12,602 nucleotides of DNA, from the IMG/VR virus record IMGVR_UViG_3300045988_094612, positions 1-12,602 of that record, one strand, 5' to 3'. A program made the position numbers and the translations under genes. Shown here in pieces: positions 1-12,602 of the stretch. The notes under the pieces are model-generated. The model was not told the origin of the DNA. It searched no databases and saw nothing but the letters and a program-made list of their open reading frames with translations. The first letter of the stretch is position 1. Each line of letters begins with the position of its first letter. The stretch is from a virus.

Positions 1-37
1 AAATATCCAAACCCCCCCCCGCTGCGAGATGGGAATT
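1..37. repeat. Left inverted terminal repeat: AAATATCCAAA-C9-GCTGCGAGATGGGAATT
   Basis: Seen directly. The reverse complement of positions 12565..12602 is identical except for a C9 versus C10 homopolymer. The sequence is a GC island in an AT-rich genome and starts with the 5'-AAA reiteration typical of protein-primed sliding-back origins. Confidence 0.9.
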
Positions 38-109
38 AAATTTGAAAAATGTAAAGATTGTAAATATTATAATTATATACTTGACTTTTATTAAACTTTG
101 TGAACTAAA

Positions 110-180
110 CATAATACTAAATTACTACTAATATAGTACTAGTTAGCAATTACTAACTACTAAATTACTACTAATTTAAA
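110..180. repeat. Cluster of TACTA/ACTA iterated motifs in the non-coding left-end region; the 16-mer ACTAAATTACTACTAAT occurs twice
   Basis: Seen directly. TTACTACTAAT occurs at about 121..131 and 165..175, and TACTAG/TTACTAACTACTAA lie between them. No ORF in the region. The position between the left origin and the first promoter suggests protein-binding iterons. Confidence 0.5.
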
Positions 181-263
181 ACTTTTCTAAAAATATTAAA
201 ATTATTGTTGACAATTCTAAAAATATTATATATAATAAGCGTGTCAATAAAGAAAGCGAGGAA
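173..263 (+). repeat. Copy A of a perfect 91-bp direct repeat comprising promoter, leader and Shine-Dalgarno site
   Basis: Positions 173..263 are identical to 545..635 (offset 372 bp) as read from the sequence. Confidence 0.9.
208..236 (+). promoter_or_regulatory. Consensus sigma-A/sigma-70 promoter: TTGACA (208..213), 17-nt spacer, TATAAT (231..236)
   Basis: Exact match to the -35 and -10 consensus hexamers with the optimal 17-nt spacer. It is followed by the SD GAGGA (258..262) and the ATG at 269. Confidence 0.8.
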
Positions 264-268
264 AATTT

Positions 269-520
269 ATGACACAAAATCAACTAAAAACATTACAAGA
301 TTGTATGAAAGATTTAGAAAATGTAACACAAGAAGAACAAGGAATTTATTACAGCGATTTATTAAGCGTTTTAGTTACAAACGTTGAAAAGATTAGTTAT
401 ATTAAATTTACTAAAAAAGTTGAACAAGCTATAAGAGTATATATAATCAGTATTATAGCTAATAATGATATTGATTATCGTATTAAAAATGAATTGCTTG
501 TTACATTTTTAAAATTCTAA
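269..520 (+). CDS. Early small protein (83 aa), function unknown
   Basis: ORF with an SD (GAGGA) 6 nt upstream, driven by consensus promoter A. No recognisable motif. Confidence 0.7.
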   Translation: MTQNQLKTLQDCMKDLENVTQEEQGIYYSDLLSVLVTNVEKISYIKFTKKVEQAIRVYIISIIANNDIDYRIKNELLVTFLKF

Positions 521-544
521 ATAAAAATAGGTTAGAGGATTACA

Positions 545-635
545 AATTTAAAACTTTTCTAAAAATATTAAAATTATTGTTGACAATTCTAAAAATATTA
601 TATATAATAAGCGTGTCAATAAAGAAAGCGAGGAA
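545..635 (+). repeat. Copy B of the 91-bp promoter/SD direct repeat
   Basis: Identical to 173..263. Confidence 0.9.
580..608 (+). promoter_or_regulatory. Second consensus sigma-A promoter: TTGACA (580..585), 17-nt spacer, TATAAT (603..608)
   Basis: Lies within repeat copy B. It is followed by GAGGA (630..634) and the ATG at 642. Confidence 0.8.
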
Positions 636-641
636 TATTTT

Positions 642-710
642 ATGATAAGTGAAATTGATTTTAAGAAATTGCAAAAAGTAAAGCTAAATATGTACGTAGG
701 TATATTATGA
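642..710 (+). CDS. 22-codon leader ORF (MISEIDFKKLQKVKLNMYVGIL). Its TGA stop overlaps the ATG of the next gene (ATGA)
   Basis: It starts at the position equivalent to the ATG of ORF 269 relative to the duplicated SD. Its stop at 708..710 overlaps the ATG at 707..709. It may be a coupling or regulatory uORF. Confidence 0.35.
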   Translation: MISEIDFKKLQKVKLNMYVGIL

Positions 711-1039
711 CAATAAAATGCGCTGATTTTTGGTTAATTCGTGACAAATTTGATAAATCACCTAAGTTGTATTTAGACGTCGTGGGCGATTATTATTTAG
801 AACACGTCACAACCGCATATTACTTTGAAAACGATATCGCATATTATTACGACCGCCATATGGTTAAATGGCATTTAGTAGATTTAAGACTGCATCGCAT
901 TATATTAACGGCTAAAAATAAAGAAGCCGTTTTACAACTAGCGCACGCAACGCGCACAAGAATAAAAGAATATAGAAAACAAAATGAATACATATACATG
1001 TGGCAAGAAAGTCAAGAAATATTAAGGGGGTTACAATAG
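707..1039 (+). CDS. Early protein (110 aa), unknown function, locally GC-richer
   Basis: ORF with only a weak SD of its own (AGGT). The ATGA overlap with the leader ORF suggests translational coupling. Confidence 0.6.
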   Translation: MTIKCADFWLIRDKFDKSPKLYLDVVGDYYLEHVTTAYYFENDIAYYYDRHMVKWHLVDLRLHRIILTAKNKEAVLQLAHATRTRIKEYRKQNEYIYMWQESQEILRGLQ

Positions 1040-1040
1040 C

Positions 1041-1292
1041 ATGAAATATAATACATTAATTAAAGACATTAAAAAGCGTAAGTTATGGGATGTAATAATT
1101 TACATTGAAAACGCGGACAATCACGCAAGTATATTTTATTATTTGTATGACTTCGAAATTTATATTAAAGCACGTTATCATAATCAAGAAAGATTTGTAG
1201 ATTTTACACTAACTTATATTAGAAAAAGAAAAGAGCTTCATATTTGGGGACAAACTTCAAATTATAAAGAATGGAAGGACGTACAAATATGA
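1041..1292 (+). CDS. Early protein (83 aa), unknown function
   Basis: ORF preceded by AGGGGG. Its TGA stop overlaps the next ATG. Confidence 0.6.
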   Translation: MKYNTLIKDIKKRKLWDVIIYIENADNHASIFYYLYDFEIYIKARYHNQERFVDFTLTYIRKRKELHIWGQTSNYKEWKDVQI

Positions 1293-1519
1293 CCGATAAA
1301 GAAATAAAAGACTTAAAAGAAGATTTAGAATATTATCAACTTACATTTAGTATGGTTAGATATAAATTAAGTAATTATAAAGAAATAATTTTAGAACTAA
1401 ACGAACTTTTAAACGATTATTTAGATCAAAATGAAATTTTTAAAAATTTAAGCACAGATAACGCATATAATTTAAAAGAGATACTAGATGATCTAGATAT
1501 AGACTTTTACAATTATTAA
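1289..1519 (+). CDS. Small acidic protein (76 aa), paralogue 1 of a tandem pair
   Basis: The preferred start is ATG 1289 (SD GGAAGGA at 1274..1280, 8-nt spacing, ATGA overlap with the upstream stop) rather than the track start 1271. There are about 18 acidic versus 8 basic residues. It is a paralogue of 1555..1788. Confidence 0.6.
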   Translation: MTDKEIKDLKEDLEYYQLTFSMVRYKLSNYKEIILELNELLNDYLDQNEIFKNLSTDNAYNLKEILDDLDIDFYNY

Positions 1520-1554
1520 ATCGCTTCTCATTTAATAAGAAAGAGGTAAAACAA

Positions 1555-1788
1555 ATGTTAGAAAAAGAACTAAACGATATAAAAGAAAAATTAGAATTTT
1601 TAGAATTAATGAACGACTCAAAAGATTATAAAATAAAAAAATACGAATTTTTAATACTACAATTAAACGAACTTTTAATTAGTACCACTGATATGACGCA
1701 AATAGATATATTTAATGCTTTAGTTGGTGATAGTCCAAACACATTAAACAAAATATTAGATACGCTAGACTTAAATTTAAACTATTAA
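1555..1788 (+). CDS. Small acidic protein (77 aa), paralogue 2 of the tandem pair
   Basis: SD AAGAGG upstream. It shares a (K)E(I/L)xDxKExLEy N-terminus, a central ILxLNELL block and an ILDxLDxxxxNY C-terminus with 1289..1519. A 14-nt stretch AAACGAACTTTTAA and the 3' flank GCTTCTCATT are conserved at the DNA level. Confidence 0.65.
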   Translation: MLEKELNDIKEKLEFLELMNDSKDYKIKKYEFLILQLNELLISTTDMTQIDIFNALVGDSPNTLNKILDTLDLNLNY

Positions 1789-1845
1789 AATAGCTTCTCA
1801 TTCAAATTAACATATATTAAGAGAAAGAAAAGGAGGTTAATTATT

Positions 1846-2301
1846 ATGAGATTAAAACTTACTATGAAAATCAATACAAAGGAGGTGACCTATGAAGATG
1901 AAGGCAAAAAGAAAACTTTTAAAAGCTATTACACCTATTTAAAAGTGCCATTTGAAGCACCTGAGGGTAAAGATGTATCATTTAATTTACACTTTAGGCA
2001 AGATTGTGAGAACGCGTACGGTCGTGATTTAAACGGGGTTGTTACCGCTATTGTGGATGTACCTTGGTACGTTGTAGTTAAAGAGGGTAAAAATGAAGAT
2101 TACACTAAACAAGCTAAAATGATATTAAATGAAATATACGGCAAAAAAAGATTTGAAAACATTTGGCTTCATAAAATCTTAGATTATAAACCATTTGAAG
2201 AGAAAGAAGAAAACGACGACGATTTATTAGAATTTGACACGACAAAAAAGACTAAAGACGTTGAAAACATTAAAACAACCGACGACGATTTACCATTTTA
2301 A
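1846..2301 (+). CDS. Putative single-stranded DNA-binding protein or SSB mimic (151 aa) with a duplicated SSB C-terminal acidic tip (NDDDLLEF and TDDDLPF-COOH)
   Basis: Strong SD AAAGGAGG. The C-terminus ...TTDDDLPF matches the conserved Firmicute SSB C-terminal tip (E. coli SSB ends DDDIPF). An internal second copy is encoded by the direct repeat GACGACGATTTA at 2215 and 2281. The N-terminal part is beta-rich and could be an OB fold. An SSB is expected in a protein-primed replication module. Confidence 0.45.
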   Translation: MRLKLTMKINTKEVTYEDEGKKKTFKSYYTYLKVPFEAPEGKDVSFNLHFRQDCENAYGRDLNGVVTAIVDVPWYVVVKEGKNEDYTKQAKMILNEIYGKKRFENIWLHKILDYKPFEEKEENDDDLLEFDTTKKTKDVENIKTTDDDLPF

Positions 2302-2314
2302 GGAGTTAATAAAA

Positions 2315-2569
2315 ATGACAAAAGATATTAATATAACCGATTTTTTCACTTATTTTGTAGTCAATTACAAGCAAGACACTAAATATATGGTTTATTTACT
2401 AGTATATGGAGGTGGCAAACTATATATTAATAACGATTTGACATTTACATATGAACAACCAAATAAAATGAGTTTAATCGGTGTGCTTACCTTATTTGAA
2501 GAAATAATTCAATGCGATTGTGAGAATTTATTAGATATTCTTTACATAAAGGAGGTAATTAAAGACTAA
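2315..2569 (+). CDS. Early protein (84 aa), unknown function
   Basis: The preferred start is ATG 2315 (SD AAGGAG 2300..2305, 9-nt spacing) rather than 2234, which lies inside the previous gene. The stop overlaps the next ATG (TAATG). Confidence 0.55.
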   Translation: MTKDINITDFFTYFVVNYKQDTKYMVYLLVYGGGKLYINNDLTFTYEQPNKMSLIGVLTLFEEIIQCDCENLLDILYIKEVIKD

Positions 2570-3330
2570 TGCCTAAGAGACTTAAATTAAATTTATCTTA
2601 TAACGATTTAAATAAAATGTCTCTTACTGATTTAAAAAGCTATGCCATAAAGCTTAACAACGTTGCAAACTTGAGAGTAAGAAAGCTAAGAGAATTTGCT
2701 CCTTACTCTCCCGCTTTGTCTTCATACGAACGTAGCGAGTTAGGTACTTTTAGAATTGGTAAGGACGCGGATATTAATAGCTTACGCAAAAGCGTAGCTA
2801 GGGCAAAACACTTTCTTGAAATGGAGACGAGTACAGTTAGAGGTTCTATAAATGTTACATTACGCACTTTAAAACGCTTCGGTATAGAACCTCCTGATTT
2901 TAGCAAGAAAGAAAAAAAACCAAGAGGACGACCAAAAGGTTCAAAAAATAAAATTAAAACAAACGTACCTAAAGAGAAAAAACCAAGAGGACGACCAAAA
3001 GGTTCAAAAAATAAAAACGCATATAGTCAATATATTGAGACCGTAAAATGGTTATATTCAAAGAGAGAATTATTAAAAGAGTTCTTCGACTTGTACAATA
3101 GATATAAAGATTTATACCATGGTGGCGAACTACCTAGTGATACTATTAAAGTAGGTATGGATGTATTTTTGGACCTTAAAAATGATTTATTACAAAAAGT
3201 TGGCGACGAATGGGTAAATAGAGAAACGGGAGAAATAGTAGACCGAGACCAAATATTCTTTGATATTATGAATCAAAAAATAGAGAGAATGCACGACTAT
3301 ATTTATAGCTCATACAATCAATATAACTAA
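2569..3330 (+). CDS. Putative terminal protein (253 aa) carrying two tandem AT-hook motifs (KKPRGRPKGSKNK x2)
   Basis: It sits immediately upstream of, and is coupled to, the protein-primed DNA polymerase, as in phi29 gene 3 / gene 2. Its size is similar to phi29 TP (266 aa). By eye it resembles phi29 TP around YHGGELPSDTI (phi29 YAGGKPQGTI). RGRP is the AT-hook core. There is a Ser/Tyr-rich C-terminus. Confidence 0.5.
   Translation: MPKRLKLNLSYNDLNKMSLTDLKSYAIKLNNVANLRVRKLREFAPYSPALSSYERSELGTFRIGKDADINSLRKSVARAKHFLEMETSTVRGSINVTLRTLKRFGIEPPDFSKKEKKPRGRPKGSKNKIKTNVPKEKKPRGRPKGSKNKNAYSQYIETVKWLYSKRELLKEFFDLYNRYKDLYHGGELPSDTIKVGMDVFLDLKNDLLQKVGDEWVNRETGEIVDRDQIFFDIMNQKIERMHDYIYSSYNQYN
2913..3017 (+). 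repeat. Roughly 40-bp direct repeat, two copies 63 bp apart, encoding the two AT-hook units
   Basis: AAAAAACCAAGAGGACGACCAAAAGGTTCAAAAAATAAAA occurs at about 2915..2954 and 2977..3016. Confidence 0.85.
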
Positions 3331-3332
3331 TT

Positions 3333-5420
3333 ATGAAACAATACAATACGATTAAGGAGTGTTTAGCAAATGTAAAAAACTTTAAAACATACAAAAAAAG
3401 ACATAGAGATAAATACTTTAATAATCGTATTTGCTTTGACATTGAAGTATCTAGTTTCTATGTTGAAGGTATTGAAAAAGAACTAACTAAAAGAGCATGT
3501 TGTTACGCTTATATTTTTGGTATCGACGGCAATTATAAAATCGGTAGAAGCTTAGAAGAATTTATAAAAGACGTTGATTATCTTGAGTATGTTATGCATA
3601 AAAAAGACCCTGAAGCACATATAGTTATATGGATCCACAACTTAGCATATGAGTTTCAGTTTATTAGAAAGTATTTTGAGATACAGGAAATTTTAGCAAA
3701 CGACGAGAGAAAGATTATATACGCAGTTACTAAAAATAATATCGAGTTTAGATGTAGCTATATGTTGAGTGGATACTCTTTACGTAAAGTAGGAGAAAAT
3801 CTAAGACACCATACCGCTAAAAAAATGGTAGGAGATTTAGACTATTCCTTATTAAGAGGATCTACAACTCCACTAACTGAAAAAGAAATCGGATATATCA
3901 GGGAAGACTACGAGGTATTAGACAACTACATTGAAGAAGAACTCGAAACTTATCAATATATCTCACGATTACCATTAACTAAAACGGGTAAAGTAAGAAA
4001 GTTTTGTCGTAAAGTTTGCAATGAAAAAGGCGACTATAGAAAAAGATTTATTAAAAATCTTGTTATTAACGACGCTCAAGAATATATGCTTATGCGACGT
4101 GCTTTCATGGGAGGCTTTACACATGCTAACTCATTGGCTGTTAATAACTTAATTAGAGATGTAACATCTATCGACTTTACTAGCTCTTATCCCGCCGTTA
4201 TGGTGAGTGAGATGTTCCCTATGAGTCGAGGTCAAATAATAGAGATTAAATCTTTAGACCAAATAAAAGAATTATCTAAAAGAAACTGTCTTATATTTGA
4301 TATAGAGTTTTGGGATTTAGAAAGTACTTTTATTTATGAGTCTTATTTGTCAAGTTCACATGGTATCACTGAGGGAGCTACGACGATAAACAATGGTAGA
4401 ATAGTTATGACTAAATATTTAAAAACTACAATAACTAACATAGATTTAGATATAATAGAGAAAGTTTATAAATGGACTAAATGTAAAATAGGTTTGTGCT
4501 ACGTTTATAAAAAATGGTACCTCCCTACTACATTTGTAAAAAGTATCTTAATGTTATATAAAGACAAAACAACTTTAAAAGGTATTGACGACAAGATAGC
4601 CGAATACATGAATTCCAAAGAAATGTTAAACTCTTGTTATGGTATGACTGTTACTGATATTATTAAACCTGAGGTAGAATATGACGACGAGGAGGGGTGG
4701 CATACCGAAGAAATGACACTCGATAAACGAGGAGAATTAGTAGAAAAGTATAACAATCAGCGCTCAAGGTTTTTATTCTATCCATGGGGTGTTTTTATCA
4801 CAGCATATGCTAGGCGGAACCTGTGGTCAGGTATTTTAGAATTTGGAGAAGATTACTGCTATAGTGATACCGACTCGATCAAAGGAATTAATTATAAAAA
4901 ACATAAGAATTATGTTGATAAATACAACGATATATGTTATCATAAATTAGAGGTAGCAATGAGTTATCATAAACTTGATATATCATTGTGCGCTCCGACA
5001 ACTATAAAAGGAGAAAAGAAAATCATAGGCGTTTGGGATTATGACGGTCATTATGATATGTTCAAAACTTTAGGAGCTAAACGCTATATGGTATATAACA
5101 ACAAAGGATTATCATTAACTATATCAGGAGTTAATAAAACTAAAGCAGTACCTTATTTACTCAAAAAGTATAAAAACGATATACAACAAATATTTGATAG
5201 TTTTAGTAATGGATTTGAGGTACCCTCACCACATGCGGGCAAGCAAATTCTTACATATATTGACTATGAAACGAGCGGAGAGTTTATGGACTATTTAGGC
5301 AATAGACAAACGTATCATGAGTTAAGCTCAGTACATATGGAAGAGGGAAGCTATACATTGACAATGAGTGACGAGTACTTAAAATTCTTAGCGGAAGGAG
5401 TGAAGATAGATTATGTATAA
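3333..5420 (+). CDS. Protein-primed family-B DNA polymerase (695 aa)
   Basis: Contains Exo I FDIEV, Exo II HNLAYE (phi29 HNLKFD), Exo III YIRED, motif A DFTSSYPA (DxxSLYPS), motif B KEMLNSCYG (Kx3NSxYG), YPWGVFITAYAR (phi29 TPMGVFITAWAR), motif C YCYSDTDS (YxDTDS) and KRYMVY (KxY). The N-terminus YKIGRSLEEFI matches phi29 YKIGNSLDEFM. There is no SD; the start is 2 nt after the TP stop, suggesting coupling. Confidence 0.95.
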   Translation: MKQYNTIKECLANVKNFKTYKKRHRDKYFNNRICFDIEVSSFYVEGIEKELTKRACCYAYIFGIDGNYKIGRSLEEFIKDVDYLEYVMHKKDPEAHIVIWIHNLAYEFQFIRKYFEIQEILANDERKIIYAVTKNNIEFRCSYMLSGYSLRKVGENLRHHTAKKMVGDLDYSLLRGSTTPLTEKEIGYIREDYEVLDNYIEEELETYQYISRLPLTKTGKVRKFCRKVCNEKGDYRKRFIKNLVINDAQEYMLMRRAFMGGFTHANSLAVNNLIRDVTSIDFTSSYPAVMVSEMFPMSRGQIIEIKSLDQIKELSKRNCLIFDIEFWDLESTFIYESYLSSSHGITEGATTINNGRIVMTKYLKTTITNIDLDIIEKVYKWTKCKIGLCYVYKKWYLPTTFVKSILMLYKDKTTLKGIDDKIAEYMNSKEMLNSCYGMTVTDIIKPEVEYDDEEGWHTEEMTLDKRGELVEKYNNQRSRFLFYPWGVFITAYARRNLWSGILEFGEDYCYSDTDSIKGINYKKHKNYVDKYNDICYHKLEVAMSYHKLDISLCAPTTIKGEKKIIGVWDYDGHYDMFKTLGAKRYMVYNNKGLSLTISGVNKTKAVPYLLKKYKNDIQQIFDSFSNGFEVPSPHAGKQILTYIDYETSGEFMDYLGNRQTYHELSSVHMEEGSYTLTMSDEYLKFLAEGVKIDYV

Positions 5421-6658: not shown

Positions 6659-6898
6659 TTGATAGTCTTAACAGGAACTGTGGGAATACAACAAATCGAG
6701 TCTATTATAGGAATTATTAGTGTATCTTTATCAGTTCTATGGATTTTGTTCAAGTTGGCCTTAAAAGTGTACCAAGCTCTTAAGAATAAAGACTATAGCA
6801 ACTTAGAGAACAACATTAATAAGACTAAAGAAGAACTCGACAAGATTAAAGAAGACTTAGAAAGCAGGAGAGAAAATGGCGGACAAGATACCGAATAG
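6659..6898 (+). CDS. Small membrane protein (79 aa): an N-terminal transmembrane helix plus a charged coiled-coil tail. Candidate holin.
   Basis: The hydrophobic segment IIGIISVSLSVLWILFKLAL is followed by a K/E-rich C-terminus. The ORF has no in-frame ATG, so the start is presumably TTG 6659 (no SD) or GTG 6680. Its stop overlaps the connector gene start. Confidence 0.4.
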   Translation: MIVLTGTVGIQQIESIIGIISVSLSVLWILFKLALKVYQALKNKDYSNLENNINKTKEELDKIKEDLESRRENGGQDTE

Positions 6899-7889
6899 GC
6901 AAGATTGGAGTTATGAAAAATTATTAGGTTGTAATAGAAACCCATTGAAAGACAAAGAGCGCTTAGTATGTCAACACAAAAGTTACATGTTATCACGTCT
7001 TAATCAGTTGTTTGAATGGGACGGCTTACCAGAGACAATACCACAAAAAGAGTTTGAATGGATATTATTAATGCAGGGCAAAGCAACTATTGCCGACGTA
7101 CCTAACAAAGGCTTATATGCTTTTCAATCCAACTTAGGAGGTATCTTGAACCCTTACTACTTACCTACTCAGTCAATTGTAGTCAATCCTTACTTACCAT
7201 TTAACAAGGTACTTGAGGTTGATAAAGATTGTGTTGTAATTCGTAACACTTCAACATTTACTCCTATTAATGATATGTTAGATTTATACGCTAACATGCT
7301 AGCCGAGATTGATATATCTTTAAGAATTGCTACCGTTAATAGTCGTATTAGTTCTCTTATATCCGTAGGAGACGAAGCGACCAAAGATAGTGCTACGAAG
7401 TTCTTAGAAGATATAGAAAAAGGCAAGCTAGGAGTTATAGCTACTAACAAATTCATGGAGAGTCTTAAAGGTGGTCTTAATGCAATTCAATATGCAGGTA
7501 CTATTAGTAACATTCAGGACCTTATAGAATTAAGACAGTACATCTTAGCTACGTGGTTTAACCAACTTGGCTTAAACGCTAACTATAATATGAAACGTGA
7601 AGCTATCAACGAGAGCGAGGCTGATTTAAACGAAGAGGCTTTAATGCCATTGATAGACGATATGTTGCAATGTAGACAAGAGGGAGCCGAGAAAGTTAAT
7701 GCTATGTTTGGTACTAATCTTAGTGTTAAACTCAACTCTTCATGGAAGCTCCAAAGAAAAGAAATAGAAACATCTATGGAACTTGCCGAGAAAGAATTAA
7801 ATACCGAAGAAAACGAAGAAACACAAGAAGAGGGAGAAAGTAAGGAAGAACCAACCGAAGACAAGGATAAAGAAAATGATAACGATTAA
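6876..7889 (+). CDS. Head-tail connector / portal protein, phi29 gp10-like (337 aa) with an acidic C-terminal tail
   Basis: LSRLNQLFEWDGLPETIP matches phi29 connector LAYQLFEWENLPPTI. The size is similar (phi29 309 aa). SD AGGAGA upstream. Confidence 0.8.
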   Translation: MADKIPNRQDWSYEKLLGCNRNPLKDKERLVCQHKSYMLSRLNQLFEWDGLPETIPQKEFEWILLMQGKATIADVPNKGLYAFQSNLGGILNPYYLPTQSIVVNPYLPFNKVLEVDKDCVVIRNTSTFTPINDMLDLYANMLAEIDISLRIATVNSRISSLISVGDEATKDSATKFLEDIEKGKLGVIATNKFMESLKGGLNAIQYAGTISNIQDLIELRQYILATWFNQLGLNANYNMKREAINESEADLNEEALMPLIDDMLQCRQEGAEKVNAMFGTNLSVKLNSSWKLQRKEIETSMELAEKELNTEENEETQEEGESKEEPTEDKDKENDND

Positions 7890-8652
7890 AGATTATTTTG
7901 AACCATTAATGATGGACGATACCGAGGAAACAACCGGAATATTTAGAGCACTTGAAGAGGTAGTAAAAAGTCTAACTACACCTGACGAGATTTTAACAAA
8001 AATCTTTGATGGTAAAGGTAGTGTACTTGATATGGACTATGTCTATACACACGCATACTCTAAATGGTGTGCTTTTATACTAGAGAGATTAACTGAGTTT
8101 GTTAAAACTCTAATGCCATCTATTAGTGACAATAGAGCAAAAGTACTTACATTAGGAACACAAATCGCACCGTTATTATTAACTCGTTTCTCCGAGATTT
8201 GGAAGAAAAAGTATGTAGCTATTACCGCCGATTACACTCCAACAAACGACTACAAAGAGAATGAGAAAGTTGATTACACTTCCCACGGTGTTGATACTCC
8301 TCAAACTACTACAACGAGTAAAACGAGTACTGACACTACTCAGTCAACTAGTGTAACTCAAAATGCTAATACATATGCTTTTGATAGTATAAGTGAGACT
8401 CCTACCGCTCTCAACACAGGTGACCAAAGTGTCAATAGTACGGGTGCTCCTGATAAAAACTATACTGAGACTACCACAGGTGGAACCAATACAAGTGATG
8501 TCAACAGCACTAACACAATCACTAGGGAGGGAAAACACGGCTCAACCAACTATAGTGTATTAATTGAAAACGAGCTTAAACTACGTGAATACGATTTTTA
8601 TCAAGAGATGTTCAAAGATATTGATAGTATATTAACGTTATCAATTTATTAG
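7876..8652 (+). CDS. Structural protein (258 aa): a helical N-terminal half and a Thr/Ser/Asn-rich low-complexity C-terminal half. Possible lower-collar or head-fibre analogue.
   Basis: ORF coupled to the connector gene (start lies within the connector's last codons). About 110 residues are greater than 45% T/S/N. There is no recognisable motif; the assignment rests on position only. Confidence 0.4.
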   Translation: MITIKDYFEPLMMDDTEETTGIFRALEEVVKSLTTPDEILTKIFDGKGSVLDMDYVYTHAYSKWCAFILERLTEFVKTLMPSISDNRAKVLTLGTQIAPLLLTRFSEIWKKKYVAITADYTPTNDYKENEKVDYTSHGVDTPQTTTTSKTSTDTTQSTSVTQNANTYAFDSISETPTALNTGDQSVNSTGAPDKNYTETTTGGTNTSDVNSTNTITREGKHGSTNYSVLIENELKLREYDFYQEMFKDIDSILTLSIY

Positions 8653-8668
8653 AAGGGAGGACACAAAA

Positions 8669-8932
8669 TTGTACGTAGGAGGATATTTATTAATTAGCCT
8701 ACCTTTTGAAGCTAAGGCAGGCACACACAAAGTAGATGGTATCTACAATAGACTTGAAAGTAACTTATACAAAGCAACTAGGGTTAATGGGTTATACAAC
8801 ACAGTTGGACAAATTAGTGATTTTTATGTAACTTTTGTATTAACCACTGGTAATTATGTAGCAAAAGTTAATAGTACCGTAGGAATTACTACTATTACAA
8901 TTAAACCAACTGACGAGGTAGTATTTGCATAA
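8669..8932 (+). CDS. Small beta-rich structural protein (87 aa), TTG start
   Basis: Strong SD AAGGGAGG (8653..8660) lies 8 nt upstream of TTG 8669. The ORF has no in-frame ATG before residue 1. Confidence 0.5.
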   Translation: MYVGGYLLISLPFEAKAGTHKVDGIYNRLESNLYKATRVNGLYNTVGQISDFYVTFVLTTGNYVAKVNSTVGITTITIKPTDEVVFA

Positions 8933-9237
8933 TGGGTGGAATAATTGAAATAACAATACCTTATGAATTATGGGATAACACTAATACGTACCCTATACAA
9001 TTACCAAAAGGTACATATAAGTCTTTAATTGAAACACCTAGCAAAGTTTTATATATTCATGTTGTAGAATCTAAGACAAAGGATGTAGATTACACAGGTA
9101 GAGAATATATCTTAAACACTTTAGAAGCAATTACAACACTTGAAACAAATGAAAATTCAATAGATATTAGTATCGGCTTTAACAATATCGCTAACGAGTT
9201 TTTTATCACATCGGACGATACTATAAGCTATAAATAA
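8932..9237 (+). CDS. Small structural protein (101 aa), unknown function
   Basis: TAATG overlap with the previous gene. The composition is beta-rich. It sits immediately upstream of the major capsid gene but does not look like a helical scaffold. Confidence 0.5.
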   Translation: MGGIIEITIPYELWDNTNTYPIQLPKGTYKSLIETPSKVLYIHVVESKTKDVDYTGREYILNTLEAITTLETNENSIDISIGFNNIANEFFITSDDTISYK

Positions 9238-9265: not shown

Positions 9266-10411
9266 ATGACAGTAAAACAAATTTATGAATTAGTAAACGC
9301 AAGTACAAAACAAGTATTAGGAGAAACTGCTATCCTTACTGAAGATTTATCCAATGTCATTGATATTGGTACTGAAATCTTTAACGCTAACGCAGTAGAT
9401 AACTATGTCAAAACTTTAGTTGATAGAATTGGTAAAGTTATCTTTGTTAATAGACCCTATAGTGGTTCTATCCCTTCAGTCTTAATGGACTCATGGGAGT
9501 ACGGTTCAGTCACTGAAAAAATTCAAATGGATTTACCTGAAGCCGAAGTCAACGAGTCATGGGAATTACAAGATAGAGCTACTTATGACCAAAACTACTT
9601 CTATCAACCAAAAATCTCTGTTAAGTTCTTTAATAAGATGGTAACTTTTGAAGTTCCAATGTCAATCACTGAAAGACAAGTTCAAGAAAGCTTTACCTCA
9701 GCTCAAGCTTTAGGAAGCTTTGTTGGCATGATTTGGACAATGATTGAAAACTCCATGACCGTTAAACTTGATAGTTTAATCTTAATGACTATCAATAATA
9801 TGATTAGCTTAACTGACTTAGCTAACGGTGGCGGAGAAGCTCAACACGTCCATTTATTAACTGAATATAAAGCTCTCAATCCTGACTTTACAAAAACAGG
9901 TGAAGCTGCAATGACTGATTTAGGTTTCTTAAAATATGCCGCTTTTAGAATTAAATTAGTAGCAGGTCGAATGACTCAATATTCGGATGTCTTTAACGCT
10001 GAAAAGAAATCAAGACACACACCTAAGGATTTAATGCACATTGTATTATTATCCGACTTTAAAAATGCAGCGGATGTATATTTACAATCTGATACATTCC
10101 ACAATGAACTATCAGCTTTACCAAATAGTGAAACAGTTCAATATTGGCAAGGTTCAGGTAATGGTAGTGACGCATTTACATTCGCTAATACATCCAAGAT
10201 TAATATCAAAAACTCCAATGGCAATACATATACTAAGTCTAATATCATTGGCGTTATCTTTGATAGAGACGCATTAGGTGTTACTAAGAAAAATACACGT
10301 ATTCGCTCACACGTTGTTGATAAAGCTGAGTTCTACAACTATTGGTATAAAGCTGATGTAGGCTACTTCAACGACTTAAGCGAAAACTTCGTTTGCTTCT
10401 TAATTGATTAG
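9266..10411 (+). CDS. Major capsid protein, phi29 gp8-like (381 aa)
   Basis: YVKTLVDRIGKVIFVNR matches phi29 gp8 ITSLVDRIGLVVIRQ (recalled). The size and position fit, and the gene is followed by a strong terminator. SD GGAGGA upstream (13-nt spacing). Confidence 0.7.
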   Translation: MTVKQIYELVNASTKQVLGETAILTEDLSNVIDIGTEIFNANAVDNYVKTLVDRIGKVIFVNRPYSGSIPSVLMDSWEYGSVTEKIQMDLPEAEVNESWELQDRATYDQNYFYQPKISVKFFNKMVTFEVPMSITERQVQESFTSAQALGSFVGMIWTMIENSMTVKLDSLILMTINNMISLTDLANGGGEAQHVHLLTEYKALNPDFTKTGEAAMTDLGFLKYAAFRIKLVAGRMTQYSDVFNAEKKSRHTPKDLMHIVLLSDFKNAADVYLQSDTFHNELSALPNSETVQYWQGSGNGSDAFTFANTSKINIKNSNGNTYTKSNIIGVIFDRDALGVTKKNTRIRSHVVDKAEFYNYWYKADVGYFNDLSENFVCFLID

Positions 10412-10419
10412 TTGAAATT

Positions 10420-10450
10420 AGGGGGTATAGAAATATACCTCCTTTTCTTT
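10420..10450 (+). terminator. Rho-independent terminator: 10-bp stem AGGGGGTATA/TATACCTCCT with a GAAA tetraloop and a TTTCTTT tail
   Basis: Seen directly. The stem is 10420..10429 pairing with 10434..10443 (one G-U pair), the loop is GAAA, and a T-rich run follows. It lies just after the capsid gene stop. Confidence 0.7.
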
Positions 10451-10468: not shown

Positions 10469-10690
10469 ATGAAATTAAAAGAAGTCTTAAAATTAATTAA
10501 CAATGAATTTATTAATTATACAATATACCGTGATAAAAAAGTTGTTGCTCACTTTTCTACAAGATACCAAAAAGAAGTAGAAGAGATAACAAGAAGATAC
10601 GGACACTATAACGTTACAAATATTGGAGCTTTCATAACTTGTGACTATGAATGTGTTGTGTCATTAACACTTGAGGAAGTATTGTTATGA
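10469..10690 (+). CDS. Small protein (73 aa), unknown function
   Basis: Good SD AAAAAGGAGA 7 nt upstream. ATGA overlap with the downstream tail gene. Confidence 0.55.
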   Translation: MKLKEVLKLINNEFINYTIYRDKKVVAHFSTRYQKEVEEITRRYGHYNVTNIGAFITCDYECVVSLTLEEVLL

Positions 10691-12519
10691 AGATAACTTT
10701 ATACCAAAATGTTAGTGAACATAACCAAATGGACAAGGATTTAACTAAAGTTAAAGATATTGACGGTAAGTTTAAACAATCCACTAATATTATGAGTCCT
10801 GTATTAGTATTGAGTTATGCAACACTTCCCGATTTTAATTATATATATATTGAAGAATTAGCTCGATATTATTTTGTTGACAGTATCACAAGTATTAACG
10901 AAGGGATATGGCAAATCAATTGTAGTGAGGATGTATTAGAGACTTACGGGATCGGGATATTAAATCTTACGGCATATGTAACTAGAAATGAAAATGAATA
11001 TAATGATTATATTATAGATAAATATCTTATAAAAACAGCTAAAAAACTATATGATATTATTACACCATTAGAAAATGAGACCGACGGAAGAAATTTATTT
11101 TTAAACAATAACACCTTTAATATAGATTTTACACATGATGGCGCCCCTGCGGAGCTATCTAGTGTAACGGACTCTTTTTGTTATACTATCTCAACTAGCA
11201 ATATGACTGGAGGCCCAATTTTATTTGACCCTGAAACAGGAGTACCTACAAGCTTAGATTATATGCAAGCTAGTATAGATAATAATCAATATTCCAAATA
11301 TGGTGTTACTCAATGGGGTAAACAATTTTATCACGATGGCTTTAATAAAGTATGGGCTTTAAATAATAATAACTTACAAGCTATAGGTTCTTTACTCAAA
11401 GCAAAAGTTACAGATGTAGAAAGTGGAAGAATGTATGAAAATCTAGGTCAAATGATAAATGGATTAAAAGTATATCCATTTTCTATACCTGAGTATTTTT
11501 ATCTATGTGGTATAAGTGTAGATAAACTACCACAAGGTAATTATGCGGATTACATGAAAAAAAAACAAGGAGATAACAAAAACATACAACCTATTACAAT
11601 AGGTAACACCGCAATTGAAAATCTAGTCACTTCCGAAAAAAACACTATAGGCCAATCAGCTAACTTATATGGTGCTCCACAATTAACAGGTTGGTTATTA
11701 CCGCACCAAATAATGAGTTGCAAACTAGCTACCTTTGGTTTTGATAATGACGCTATATTATACAATAATTATCTTGATTATGAACCTTATACACAATTAC
11801 AACTTTATGTTCCGTTCTTCGGTTATATAACTATTCCTACAAATGTAGTAATAGGTAACAAAATATATTTATATTTATCGGTAGATTTTATAACGGGACT
11901 AGGAACATTATATATCACAGTAGATATAAATGGTAAAGAAACTTTAATTAATACTCAAAATAGTAAAATTGCTTATGACCTCGCTTATGGTTCTACAAAT
12001 ATAAATGAATTAGAAAGACTAACCGAATTAACCAAATCTAGGGATGCGAACAGGACAATAAGTAACATAGTAGGGAATGCATTAAGTGTTCTAACAGCTA
12101 TACCAATTGGTACGGTAAATCCAATCGCAGGAGTTACAATGGGTTTAAGTGCTTTAGTCAATACCGCACGAGGAAGTTTTAGCGATATAACTACTTATTT
12201 TAATGATGTAGACTCCAGCGCTACGACTCCTTTAAATGGTAATACCGTTTCGGGGGGAGGATCCCAAAATGGGGCAAGCAATTTGATATCACCGCGTGGG
12301 ATATTTATACTAAGAGAAAGAGTAGAAGAATATAGACCAACTTCTAATTATGCTAAATTCTTAGGTAGACCGCTAGAGATACAAAAGAATATATCTAAAT
12401 TACATGGATTTACTAAAGTGGGTAGTGTTCGTATAGAGGGAGATGATTTTGCCAAAGCTACCGAGCAAGAAAAACAAACAATAGAACAAACCTTAAAAAA
12501 TGGTTTTATACTCAGGTGA
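10687..12519 (+). CDS. Tail knob / distal tail tube protein, phi29 gp9-like (610 aa)
   Basis: SPRGIFILRERVEEYR matches phi29 gp9 GYRGVYVIKKQLKAEYR (recalled). The Gly/Ala-rich hydrophobic segment NALSVLTAIPIGTVNPIAGVTMGLSALVNTA is analogous to the gp9 membrane-active loop. The size (phi29 599 aa) and the C-terminal pattern are similar. Confidence 0.65.
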   Translation: MKITLYQNVSEHNQMDKDLTKVKDIDGKFKQSTNIMSPVLVLSYATLPDFNYIYIEELARYYFVDSITSINEGIWQINCSEDVLETYGIGILNLTAYVTRNENEYNDYIIDKYLIKTAKKLYDIITPLENETDGRNLFLNNNTFNIDFTHDGAPAELSSVTDSFCYTISTSNMTGGPILFDPETGVPTSLDYMQASIDNNQYSKYGVTQWGKQFYHDGFNKVWALNNNNLQAIGSLLKAKVTDVESGRMYENLGQMINGLKVYPFSIPEYFYLCGISVDKLPQGNYADYMKKKQGDNKNIQPITIGNTAIENLVTSEKNTIGQSANLYGAPQLTGWLLPHQIMSCKLATFGFDNDAILYNNYLDYEPYTQLQLYVPFFGYITIPTNVVIGNKIYLYLSVDFITGLGTLYITVDINGKETLINTQNSKIAYDLAYGSTNINELERLTELTKSRDANRTISNIVGNALSVLTAIPIGTVNPIAGVTMGLSALVNTARGSFSDITTYFNDVDSSATTPLNGNTVSGGGSQNGASNLISPRGIFILRERVEEYRPTSNYAKFLGRPLEIQKNISKLHGFTKVGSVRIEGDDFAKATEQEKQTIEQTLKNGFILR

Positions 12520-12564: not shown

Positions 12565-12602
12565 AAATTCCCATCTCGCAGCGGGGGGGGGTTTGGATAT
12601 TT
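12565..12602. repeat. Right inverted terminal repeat: AATTCCCATCTCGCAGC-G10-TTTGGATATTT
   Basis: Reverse complement of 1..37, with one extra base in the homopolymer. Confidence 0.9.

Follow-up and report, generated by a model that had tools for sequence, protein, structure and literature searches.

The viral record IMGVR_UViG_3300045988_094612, analysed here over its whole length of 12,602 nucleotides (nt) and called the window, carries in its early region two adjacent open reading frames (ORFs), A and B, for small acidic proteins. Comparison with related genomes indicates that A and B are, very probably, alternative alleles of one fixed early gene that is confined to a single clade of phages; together they represent an orphan family that is new but of a familiar kind, the small acidic early proteins of phages. 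Three points are clarified: the family is not like protein p56 of phage phi29, the duplication appears to consist of stacked alleles of a core early gene, and the DNA conserved behind each ORF reads as a coding relic. The two ORFs are:

ORF A, 1289..1519, + strand: A-type allele, 76 amino acids (aa), net charge −10, isoelectric point (pI) 4.15.
ORF B, 1555..1788, + strand: B-type allele, 77 aa, net charge −7, pI 4.32.

The original prediction, made from the window alone, described these as diverged paralogues with net charges of about −10 and −7. Both statements are confirmed: A and B share 41% identity over 75 residues (BLASTP E = 9e-13), and the computed charges agree. The D/E-rich C-termini it had read, ILDDLDIDFYNY in A and ILDTLDLNLNY in B, are also correct. 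The DNA copies align with a period of 266–270 nt, post-stop sequence and ribosome-binding-site spacer included (repeats D5, D7, D10 and D14), and this repetition across homologous flanks, together with the protein identity, identifies a tandem paralogue pair. Both ORFs are real coding genes under purifying selection, because their ratios of nonsynonymous to synonymous substitution (dN/dS) lie below 1, ribosome-binding sites precede them and more than 60 variants exist. The dN/dS values are 0.58–0.62 for A and 0.28–0.34 for B, against 0.05–0.10 for the polymerase, ATPase and major capsid protein (MCP) and 0.29–0.44 for the tail protein and two small virion-module genes. A Shine–Dalgarno-like AAGGA, lying within the upstream gene, precedes A, and AGAGG precedes B. 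We place the start of A at 1289, since all homologues open with M-x-[DE]-K-E, and not at the upstream ATG at 1271; the ATG at 1289 overlaps the stop codon of the preceding 83-aa gene (ATGA).

Sixty-three sequence clusters of the family came back from a word-indexed search of 5.8 billion proteins; all are from contigs of ~12–13 kb or fragments thereof, and they form four groups:

A-type, 76 aa.
B-type long form (B85), 85 aa, ending ...LNLDDYTNASHSN; the commonest allele.
Truncated B-type (B77), 77 aa, ending ...LNLDY.
Intermediate allele P0059, 83 aa, 54% identical to A.

Twenty-two related contigs were fetched and, with the window, 21 contigs cover the locus fully, in a census that is biased in that A-type proteins were looked up on purpose. 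The covering contigs divide as follows:

B only: 7/21 contigs (L001–L004, L006, L007 and L009).
Intermediate only: 2/21 contigs (L010 and L011).
A only: 8/21 contigs (L012, L013, L016, L017 and L029–L032).
A then B in tandem: 4/21 contigs (the window, L019, which is identical to it, L018 and L033).

The sole-copy alleles of the A-only contigs are 83–100% identical to A of the window, and in all 21 covering contigs the gene or genes lie between the same 83-aa gene and the same ~150-aa gene, whose product resembles a single-strand-binding protein (SSB). The tandem duplication of the original prediction therefore survives as a real paralogue pair but not as the normal state, most relatives being single-copy; likewise its placement in an early or accessory region holds for the early left-arm operon, in which the gene is not accessory but a core gene at a fixed position in every covering genome. 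More widely, the contigs given by IMG/VR were limited to B-only ones already listed, all of them from one sample, and the JGI metagenomes gave at least one fragment among the matches listed. The clade, 12–13-kb protein-primed, phi29-like podoviruses related to Astrithrvirus, appears undescribed: no close DNA relative of the window occurs among 50,697 phage records, and the ~11.6-kb Astrithrvirus group (Salmonella phage astrithr, Acinetobacter phage Phanie) comes closest among named phages, sharing the core gene order and, with the window, 43% identity in the polymerase, 51% in the ATPase and 49% in the MCP.

Comparing alleles also accounts for the conserved flanking DNA that the original prediction had noted. 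The sequence GCTTCTCATT is indeed present right behind each stop codon, at 1523–1532 and 1793–1802, but reads as a coding relic and not as a regulatory signal common to both genes. The 85-aa alleles end GAC GAC TAT ACA AAC GCT TCT CAT TCA AAT TAA (D-D-Y-T-N-A-S-H-S-N-stop); the intermediate allele reads ...GAC TAT GAA ATC GCT TCT CAT GCA AAT TAA; all A-type alleles read ...AAT TAT TAA ATC GCT TCT CAT..., the sequence of the intermediate with GAA changed to TAA; and the 77-aa B alleles read ...GAC TAT TAA ATT GCT TCT CAT TCA AAT TAA. On these sequences GCTTCTCATT is best taken as what is left of the codons A-S-H-(S) after an in-frame nonsense mutation right behind the conserved Tyr. Both short alleles would derive from the 85-aa form by such an in-frame TAA, the old tail codons (GCTTCTCAT...) persisting as the conserved flank. 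The spacers of the window contain:

A–B spacer, 1520..1554, + strand: shortened copy of the spacer preceding the SSB-like gene, with the same junction in L018, L019 and L033.
Relic of tail codons I-A-S-H, 1520–1532 (ATCGCTTCTCATT), + strand: in frame behind the TAA.
Ribosome-binding site of B, 1537–1546 (AAGAAAGAGG), + strand.
Spacer from B to the SSB-like gene, 1789..1845, + strand.
Relic of tail codons ...ASHSN-stop, 1789–1810 (AATAGCTTCTCATTCAAATTAA), + strand: shifted by one base and thus non-coding.
Ribosome-binding site of the SSB-like gene, AAGGAGG, 1830–1836, + strand.

The relic is intact and in frame in 8/8 A-only contigs and is shifted by one-base indels in the B copies of the window and L033. 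Stop-codon read-through into it was rejected on this shift in the B77 alleles; the A alleles, with the relic intact, could formally still allow it. Residues 77–85 of B85 are predicted by AlphaFold to be disordered (predicted local distance difference test, pLDDT, below 50), which is consistent with a dispensable tail. Consensus scans found no promoter or terminator at GCTTCTCATT, and Rfam and ARAGORN found no structured RNA or tRNA in the region. Mimicry of an SSB tip by the acidic aromatic C-terminus (…DIDFYNY-COOH, …LNLDY-COOH) was discarded as a general account, since B85, the commonest allele, runs seven residues beyond the conserved Tyr (…YTNASHSN). The intermediate allele P0059 (L010, 977–1228) joins an A-like N-terminus and an A-like 2-residue deletion to a B-like C-terminus with the full ASHAN tail, and has GAA at the exact codon that reads TAA in A-type alleles; the ancestor of A probably resembled it.

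All four tandem contigs have an identical A–B junction, indicating descent from one event. The duplicated unit runs from start codon to next start codon and takes in the ORF and the relic behind its stop codon, together with a shortened version of the next gene's spacer and ribosome-binding site. It may have arisen by an old duplication followed by reciprocal losses, or by a recent unequal crossover between an A-type and a B-type phage; we leave the two histories side by side. It is quite possible, if somewhat short of an even call, that the tandem is non-adaptive, a neutral by-product of unequal recombination or a remnant of an old duplication in which one copy is redundant, a proposal about the duplication and not about the biochemistry of the proteins. 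The rarity of the arrangement (4/21 contigs) and its single origin would suit this, as would the many single-copy A and single-copy B genomes, which are evidently viable, the truncated 77-aa form of B in the window, whose post-stop relic is already drifting by indels, and the mosaic 5′ ends of A alleles (MLEK- in L018 and L033, MTDK- in the window). Set against it, both ORFs are intact in three independent tandem sequences from different samples (window/L019, L018 and L033), and a useless 266-nt insert should vanish quickly from a 12.6-kb genome with tight packaging limits.

Searches beyond the clade returned nothing to which the family could be assigned. The best E-values in Pfam and PHROGs were 0.02–0.1, far short of the cut-offs; PADLOC, which covers defence-associated families, gave no match; and NCBIfam gave a chance-level match only, to the related allele P0007, with E 0.024 and 13.7 bits where the cut-off is 399 bits. 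When 1.84 billion representative proteins were searched exhaustively with a HMMER profile of the family, four matches appeared, all from this clade, and this confinement makes the family an orphan. A profile search of Protein Data Bank (PDB) sequences stayed at chance level (best OspG kinase, E = 0.054). Foldseek found no match with E < 1 for the A model in the PDB or for the B85 model in BFVD, although the models are extended helices, so that fold searches say little. The family profile matched nothing in the astrithr proteome and scored at most 2.9 bits against phi29 p56, p6, p5.5, p1, gp7, p16.7 and p17. A match to a known housekeeping family, which the original prediction had named as telling against it, came from none of Pfam, PHROGs, NCBIfam, the PDB profile search and Foldseek. 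The family merits an annotation profile of its own.

AlphaFold2, run on a 30-sequence alignment, gave monomer models. That of A has a long helix (residues 3–56) and a short one (62–69), with a mean pLDDT of 77 and 93–94 over the first 20 residues; that of B85 has helices at 2–44, 49–58, 61–71 and 75–81, with a mean pLDDT of 63.5. The protein is predicted to be soluble, acidic and all-helical, an N-terminal helix of ~40 residues being followed by two or three short amphipathic acidic helices. The alignment shows an unbroken 3–4 hydrophobic repeat over residues 2–41, a heptad pattern that suggests oligomerisation, with a broad invariant hydrophobic core (Y30, I34, L37 and L41, within ILxLNELL) and ~10 nearly invariant acidic columns. 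Charges nearly cancel in the N-terminal helix (net −3 in both A and B), and residues 42–76 hold most of the negative excess (net −7 in A, −4 in B); overall the charge density is −0.13 per residue in A and −0.09 in B. We infer an oligomerising N-terminal helix joined to a small acidic helical C-terminal module. In charge and helical prediction the family is, like the gp5.9, Gam and Ocr types of DNA mimic, small, strongly acidic and mainly helical.

The function that we favour, and hold only tentatively, is that the protein, early, oligomeric, acidic and helical, blocks a basic host protein that binds nucleic acids, its alleles tracking variation in the target. The N-terminal helix would oligomerise the protein, and the acidic C-terminal helices would occupy the basic nucleic-acid-binding surface of the host protein early in infection, so that a host factor of defence or DNA metabolism would be inhibited competitively, in the manner of a DNA mimic. 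Variation in that target would be reflected in the A/B allelism, and stacking both alleles would cover a wider range of targets. Allele divergence is the first argument for this: the classes are 38–54% identical, whereas flanking genes are 74–98% and the polymerase 94–97% identical (13 related contigs compared for the polymerase), and the acidic locus is the most divergent positionally conserved gene after the tail protein, which fits a host-interaction protein. By dN/dS, the gene is constrained 3–8 times less than the enzymes are. Backbones with different terminal protein (TP) and tail types carry A-type alleles, which thus behave as an exchanged cassette; across 13 loci no clear link between the A/B allele and either tail or TP type emerged. 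The charge density of A, concentrated in residues 42–76, argues the same way, and there is a precedent in T7 gp5.9, an acidic helical coiled-coil DNA mimic encoded among replication genes (PMC9836394).

Several points weigh against this function. No homology, fold match or partner prediction ties the family to a known inhibitor, and the models are monomeric and of low to moderate confidence (predicted template modelling score 0.33–0.42). The negative charge sits mainly in the short C-terminal helices behind a near-balanced N-terminal helix, whereas in T7 gp5.9 it runs along the coiled coil, and B is only moderately acidic. Both dN/dS ratios lie below 1, so that positive selection is not demonstrated. 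Universal presence in the clade, at a fixed place among the replication genes, suits a phage-internal function equally well, and the rare tandem could be a neutral recombination by-product. It is distinctly unlikely, in our estimate, that A and B serve as exchangeable specificity alleles in a new family of coiled-coil, DNA-mimic-like inhibitors, with each allele matched to its own variant of a single host protein, of defence or DNA binding, and stacking a way to escape both variants; A:B hetero-oligomers might then form via the invariant ILxLNELL core. If so, this phage, one of the smallest with a tail, would naturally carry a minimal counter-defence locus of two alleles. If the favoured inhibitory role is correct, the family would be a very small new class of helical inhibitor whose allelic series (A, B85, B77 and intermediate) maps the specificity determinants, in the setting of a 12.6-kb phage in which every gene is assignable.

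The genes and signals around the locus bear on two alternatives. The nearest are:

Upstream basic early gene (g83b), 1041..1292, + strand: 83 aa, pI 9.3.
SSB-like gene, 1846..2301, + strand: 151 aa, C-terminal tip DDDLPF.
Promoter match, 580..608, + strand: perfect sigma-70-type, TTGACA-17-TATAAT; nearest upstream candidate for the operon.
Second perfect TTGACA-17-TATAAT match, 208–236.

The two perfect matches lie one in each copy of a 100-nt direct repeat (169–268 and 541–640, 98% identical); promoter-like matches in total are no more numerous than in shuffled sequence, and only these two duplicated ones stand out. The promoter candidate at 580–608 may serve an operon of g110, g83b, A, B, the SSB-like gene, TP and polymerase (Pol). 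As no terminator-like site occurs in 1–3400, and so none between the promoters and the polymerase gene, A and B are most likely co-transcribed early with the replication genes. In relatives the 100-nt repeat brackets or precedes a variable accessory slot, and it may act both as promoter and as recombination substrate. This slot, left of the acidic locus, falls between the genes at 269–520 and 707–1039, that is, between conserved 83-aa and 110-aa early genes (examples L004 504–1752, L007, L002, L013 and L016); relatives hold one to four extra small ORFs in it, the window and L009 none.

An early takeover protein of the AsiA or Gp2 kind, which modulates host RNA polymerase or its sigma factor and aids the transcription switch, might well be small and acidic, and with the sole perfect promoters at 208–236 and 580–608 and all genes on one strand a temporal regulator is expected, none having been identified. 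We consider this role improbable for A and B, given that they resemble no known anti-sigma or RNA-polymerase-binding family and that host RNA polymerase is highly conserved, which makes deep allelic divergence unexpected.

The SSB-like gene marks the right border of the locus in all genomes. A DDDLPF-type tip is a hallmark of bacterial SSB proteins, and (D)DDLPF-COOH is retained in 14/16 related loci of this gene; the SSB label rests solely on the tip, the 151-aa protein having no SSB profile, Pfam or PDB sequence match. It is a putative single-strand-binding protein or one that hijacks the SSB interactome; the tip suggests that the host SSB interactome is hijacked and, along with the perfect TTGACA/TATAAT promoters, it points tentatively to a Gram-positive host of low GC content. 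A literature search on the sample accessions yielded no paper on host or environment. The protein also has an internal near-copy of the tip, NDDDLLEF (DNA repeat 2195–2226 / 2261–2292). Further along, a 253-aa gene (2569–3330) is homologous to astrithr gp02 (32% identity over 85 residues, E = 8e-5), which directly precedes the astrithr polymerase gene, and its product is likely the TP. This candidate is very basic, with two KKPRGRPKGSKNK repeats, and contains a tandem duplicated AT-hook-like segment, KEKKPRGRPKGSKNK (repeat 2908–2953 / 2971–3016). Across the clade the TP gene is of two deeply different types, 87–90% and 57–61% identical to that of the window. Some relatives carry an extra 87–88-aa gene between the 84-aa gene and TP (L007 3233–3499, L009 2088–2354, L010, L013 and L017), which the window does not have.

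Read against phi29, this order (acidic gene or genes, SSB-like, small gene, TP, Pol) parallels genes 6, 5.5, 5, 4, 3 and 2, and the acidic gene takes the same relative early-operon position, directly upstream of the SSB gene, as p6 and gene 5.5. The main competitor of the favoured function is an accessory factor for the phage's own replication or transcription, analogous by position to phi29 genes 6/5.5. It might serve the basic TP candidate, the SSB-like protein or the polymerase as an acidic oligomeric adaptor or chaperone, or it might organise replication complexes. The gene occurs in every covering genome of the clade at a fixed place in the probably co-transcribed series g83b, A/B, SSB-like, g84, TP, Pol, and g83b is translationally coupled to it in all clade genomes. 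Acidity is no objection, p6 itself having a net charge of −10, and the most divergent A and B alleles accompany the divergent TP type in L003, L009 and L012. We rate such a factor only slightly below the favoured function. The family is shorter than p6 (76–85 against 104 aa) and shows no homology to p6 or gp5.5, the profile scoring −0.5 bits and 0.3 bits against them, nor to p1, p16.7 or p17 (maximum 2.9 bits). Phi29 p6 has a DNA-binding basic N-terminus; A and B lack any such segment, residues 1–41 carrying a net charge of about −3. A tight partnership is hard to reconcile with an acidic gene ~40% identical between genomes in which polymerase, ATPase and MCP are 93–99% identical. A-type alleles accompany both TP types, and the Astrithrvirus relatives, with the same TP/Pol/ATPase core, have no counterpart.

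The remainder of the window supplies the context for one more alternative. Perfect 37-nt inverted terminal repeats at its exact ends (1–37 and 12566–12602, AAATATCCAAACCCCCCCCCGCTGCGAGATGGGAATT), which include a C9 run, mark it as a complete linear phage genome of 12,602 bp (31.5% G+C), as expected under protein-primed replication; the repeat is far longer than the 6-nt repeat of phi29. The long ORFs all lie on the + strand and include a protein-primed-type family B polymerase (PF03175), a phi29 gp16-type packaging ATPase, a phi29-type connector and a phi29-type MCP (9266–10411). Directly 3′ of the MCP gene stands the sole good intrinsic-terminator-like hairpin of the + strand (10420–10443, a 10-bp stem followed by a T-run). 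The tail protein gene (10687–12519) encodes 610 aa, with an N-terminus resembling astrithr gp09, and its product is only 43–95% identical between otherwise near-identical clade genomes; a 101-aa gene (8932–9237) shows 59–86% identity across the clade. These two are probable host-range determinants. A 79-aa membrane-type protein (6659–6898) occupies the position of the small astrithr gp05, and no recognisable endolysin domain was found anywhere in the window.

That the acidic gene encodes a morphogenetic protein of the phi29 gp7 scaffolding type is very improbable. In size, helical and coiled-coil-type heptad character and charge A and B do resemble gp7 (98 aa, net −10), and the clade has no annotated scaffolding gene. 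The gene nevertheless lies in the early replication block, ~7.5 kb upstream of the MCP gene, and a candidate internal or scaffold gene (7876–8652, weakly similar to astrithr gp07) already sits between the portal and MCP genes. It also evolves far faster than the capsid protein, the MCP being 93–98% identical across genomes whose acidic genes are ~40% identical, and hmmsearch against gp7 gives 2.7 bits.

Returning to the favoured inhibitor, acidity is by itself weak evidence for DNA mimicry, because phi29 proteins p56 (net −7), p6 (−10), gp7 (−10) and p17 (−21) have four different functions. The original prediction had pointed to p56, which is likewise a small acidic early protein of a protein-primed podovirus with a comparable net charge. 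The profile, however, scores 0.0 bits against gp0.8/p56, and the p56 gene lies beyond the polymerase at the genome end, whereas the acidic gene lies upstream of the SSB-like gene. Phi29 p56 is a DNA mimic that inhibits uracil-DNA glycosylase (UDG) (PMC3239192, PMC3711442) and is dimeric, each chain folding into one helix and three antiparallel β-strands (PMC3239192). With no sequence match and a different predicted fold, all-helical and without strands at moderate model confidence, we reject membership of the p56 UDG-inhibitor family.

The nearest functional analogy would be T7 gp5.9, an acidic parallel coiled-coil DNA mimic that inhibits RecBCD (PMC9836394). Like A and B it is small, acidic and mostly helical with a heptad pattern, lies among replication genes and has no detectable homologues beyond its own group of phages. 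The sequences are not similar, and the resemblance is limited to size, charge and helical/heptad character; a phage with protein-capped ends would also have a less obvious need to inhibit RecBCD or AddAB. Lytic phages are further known to keep allelic cassettes at fixed hot-spot loci, such as the alternative early anti-restriction or anti-defence genes of T7-like phages. The alternatives described here differ from those in being homologous alleles of one family rather than unrelated genes, with an anti-defence activity that is here only hypothetical. They share with them a conserved position between conserved genes, which holds deeply diverged alternatives that move between backbones.

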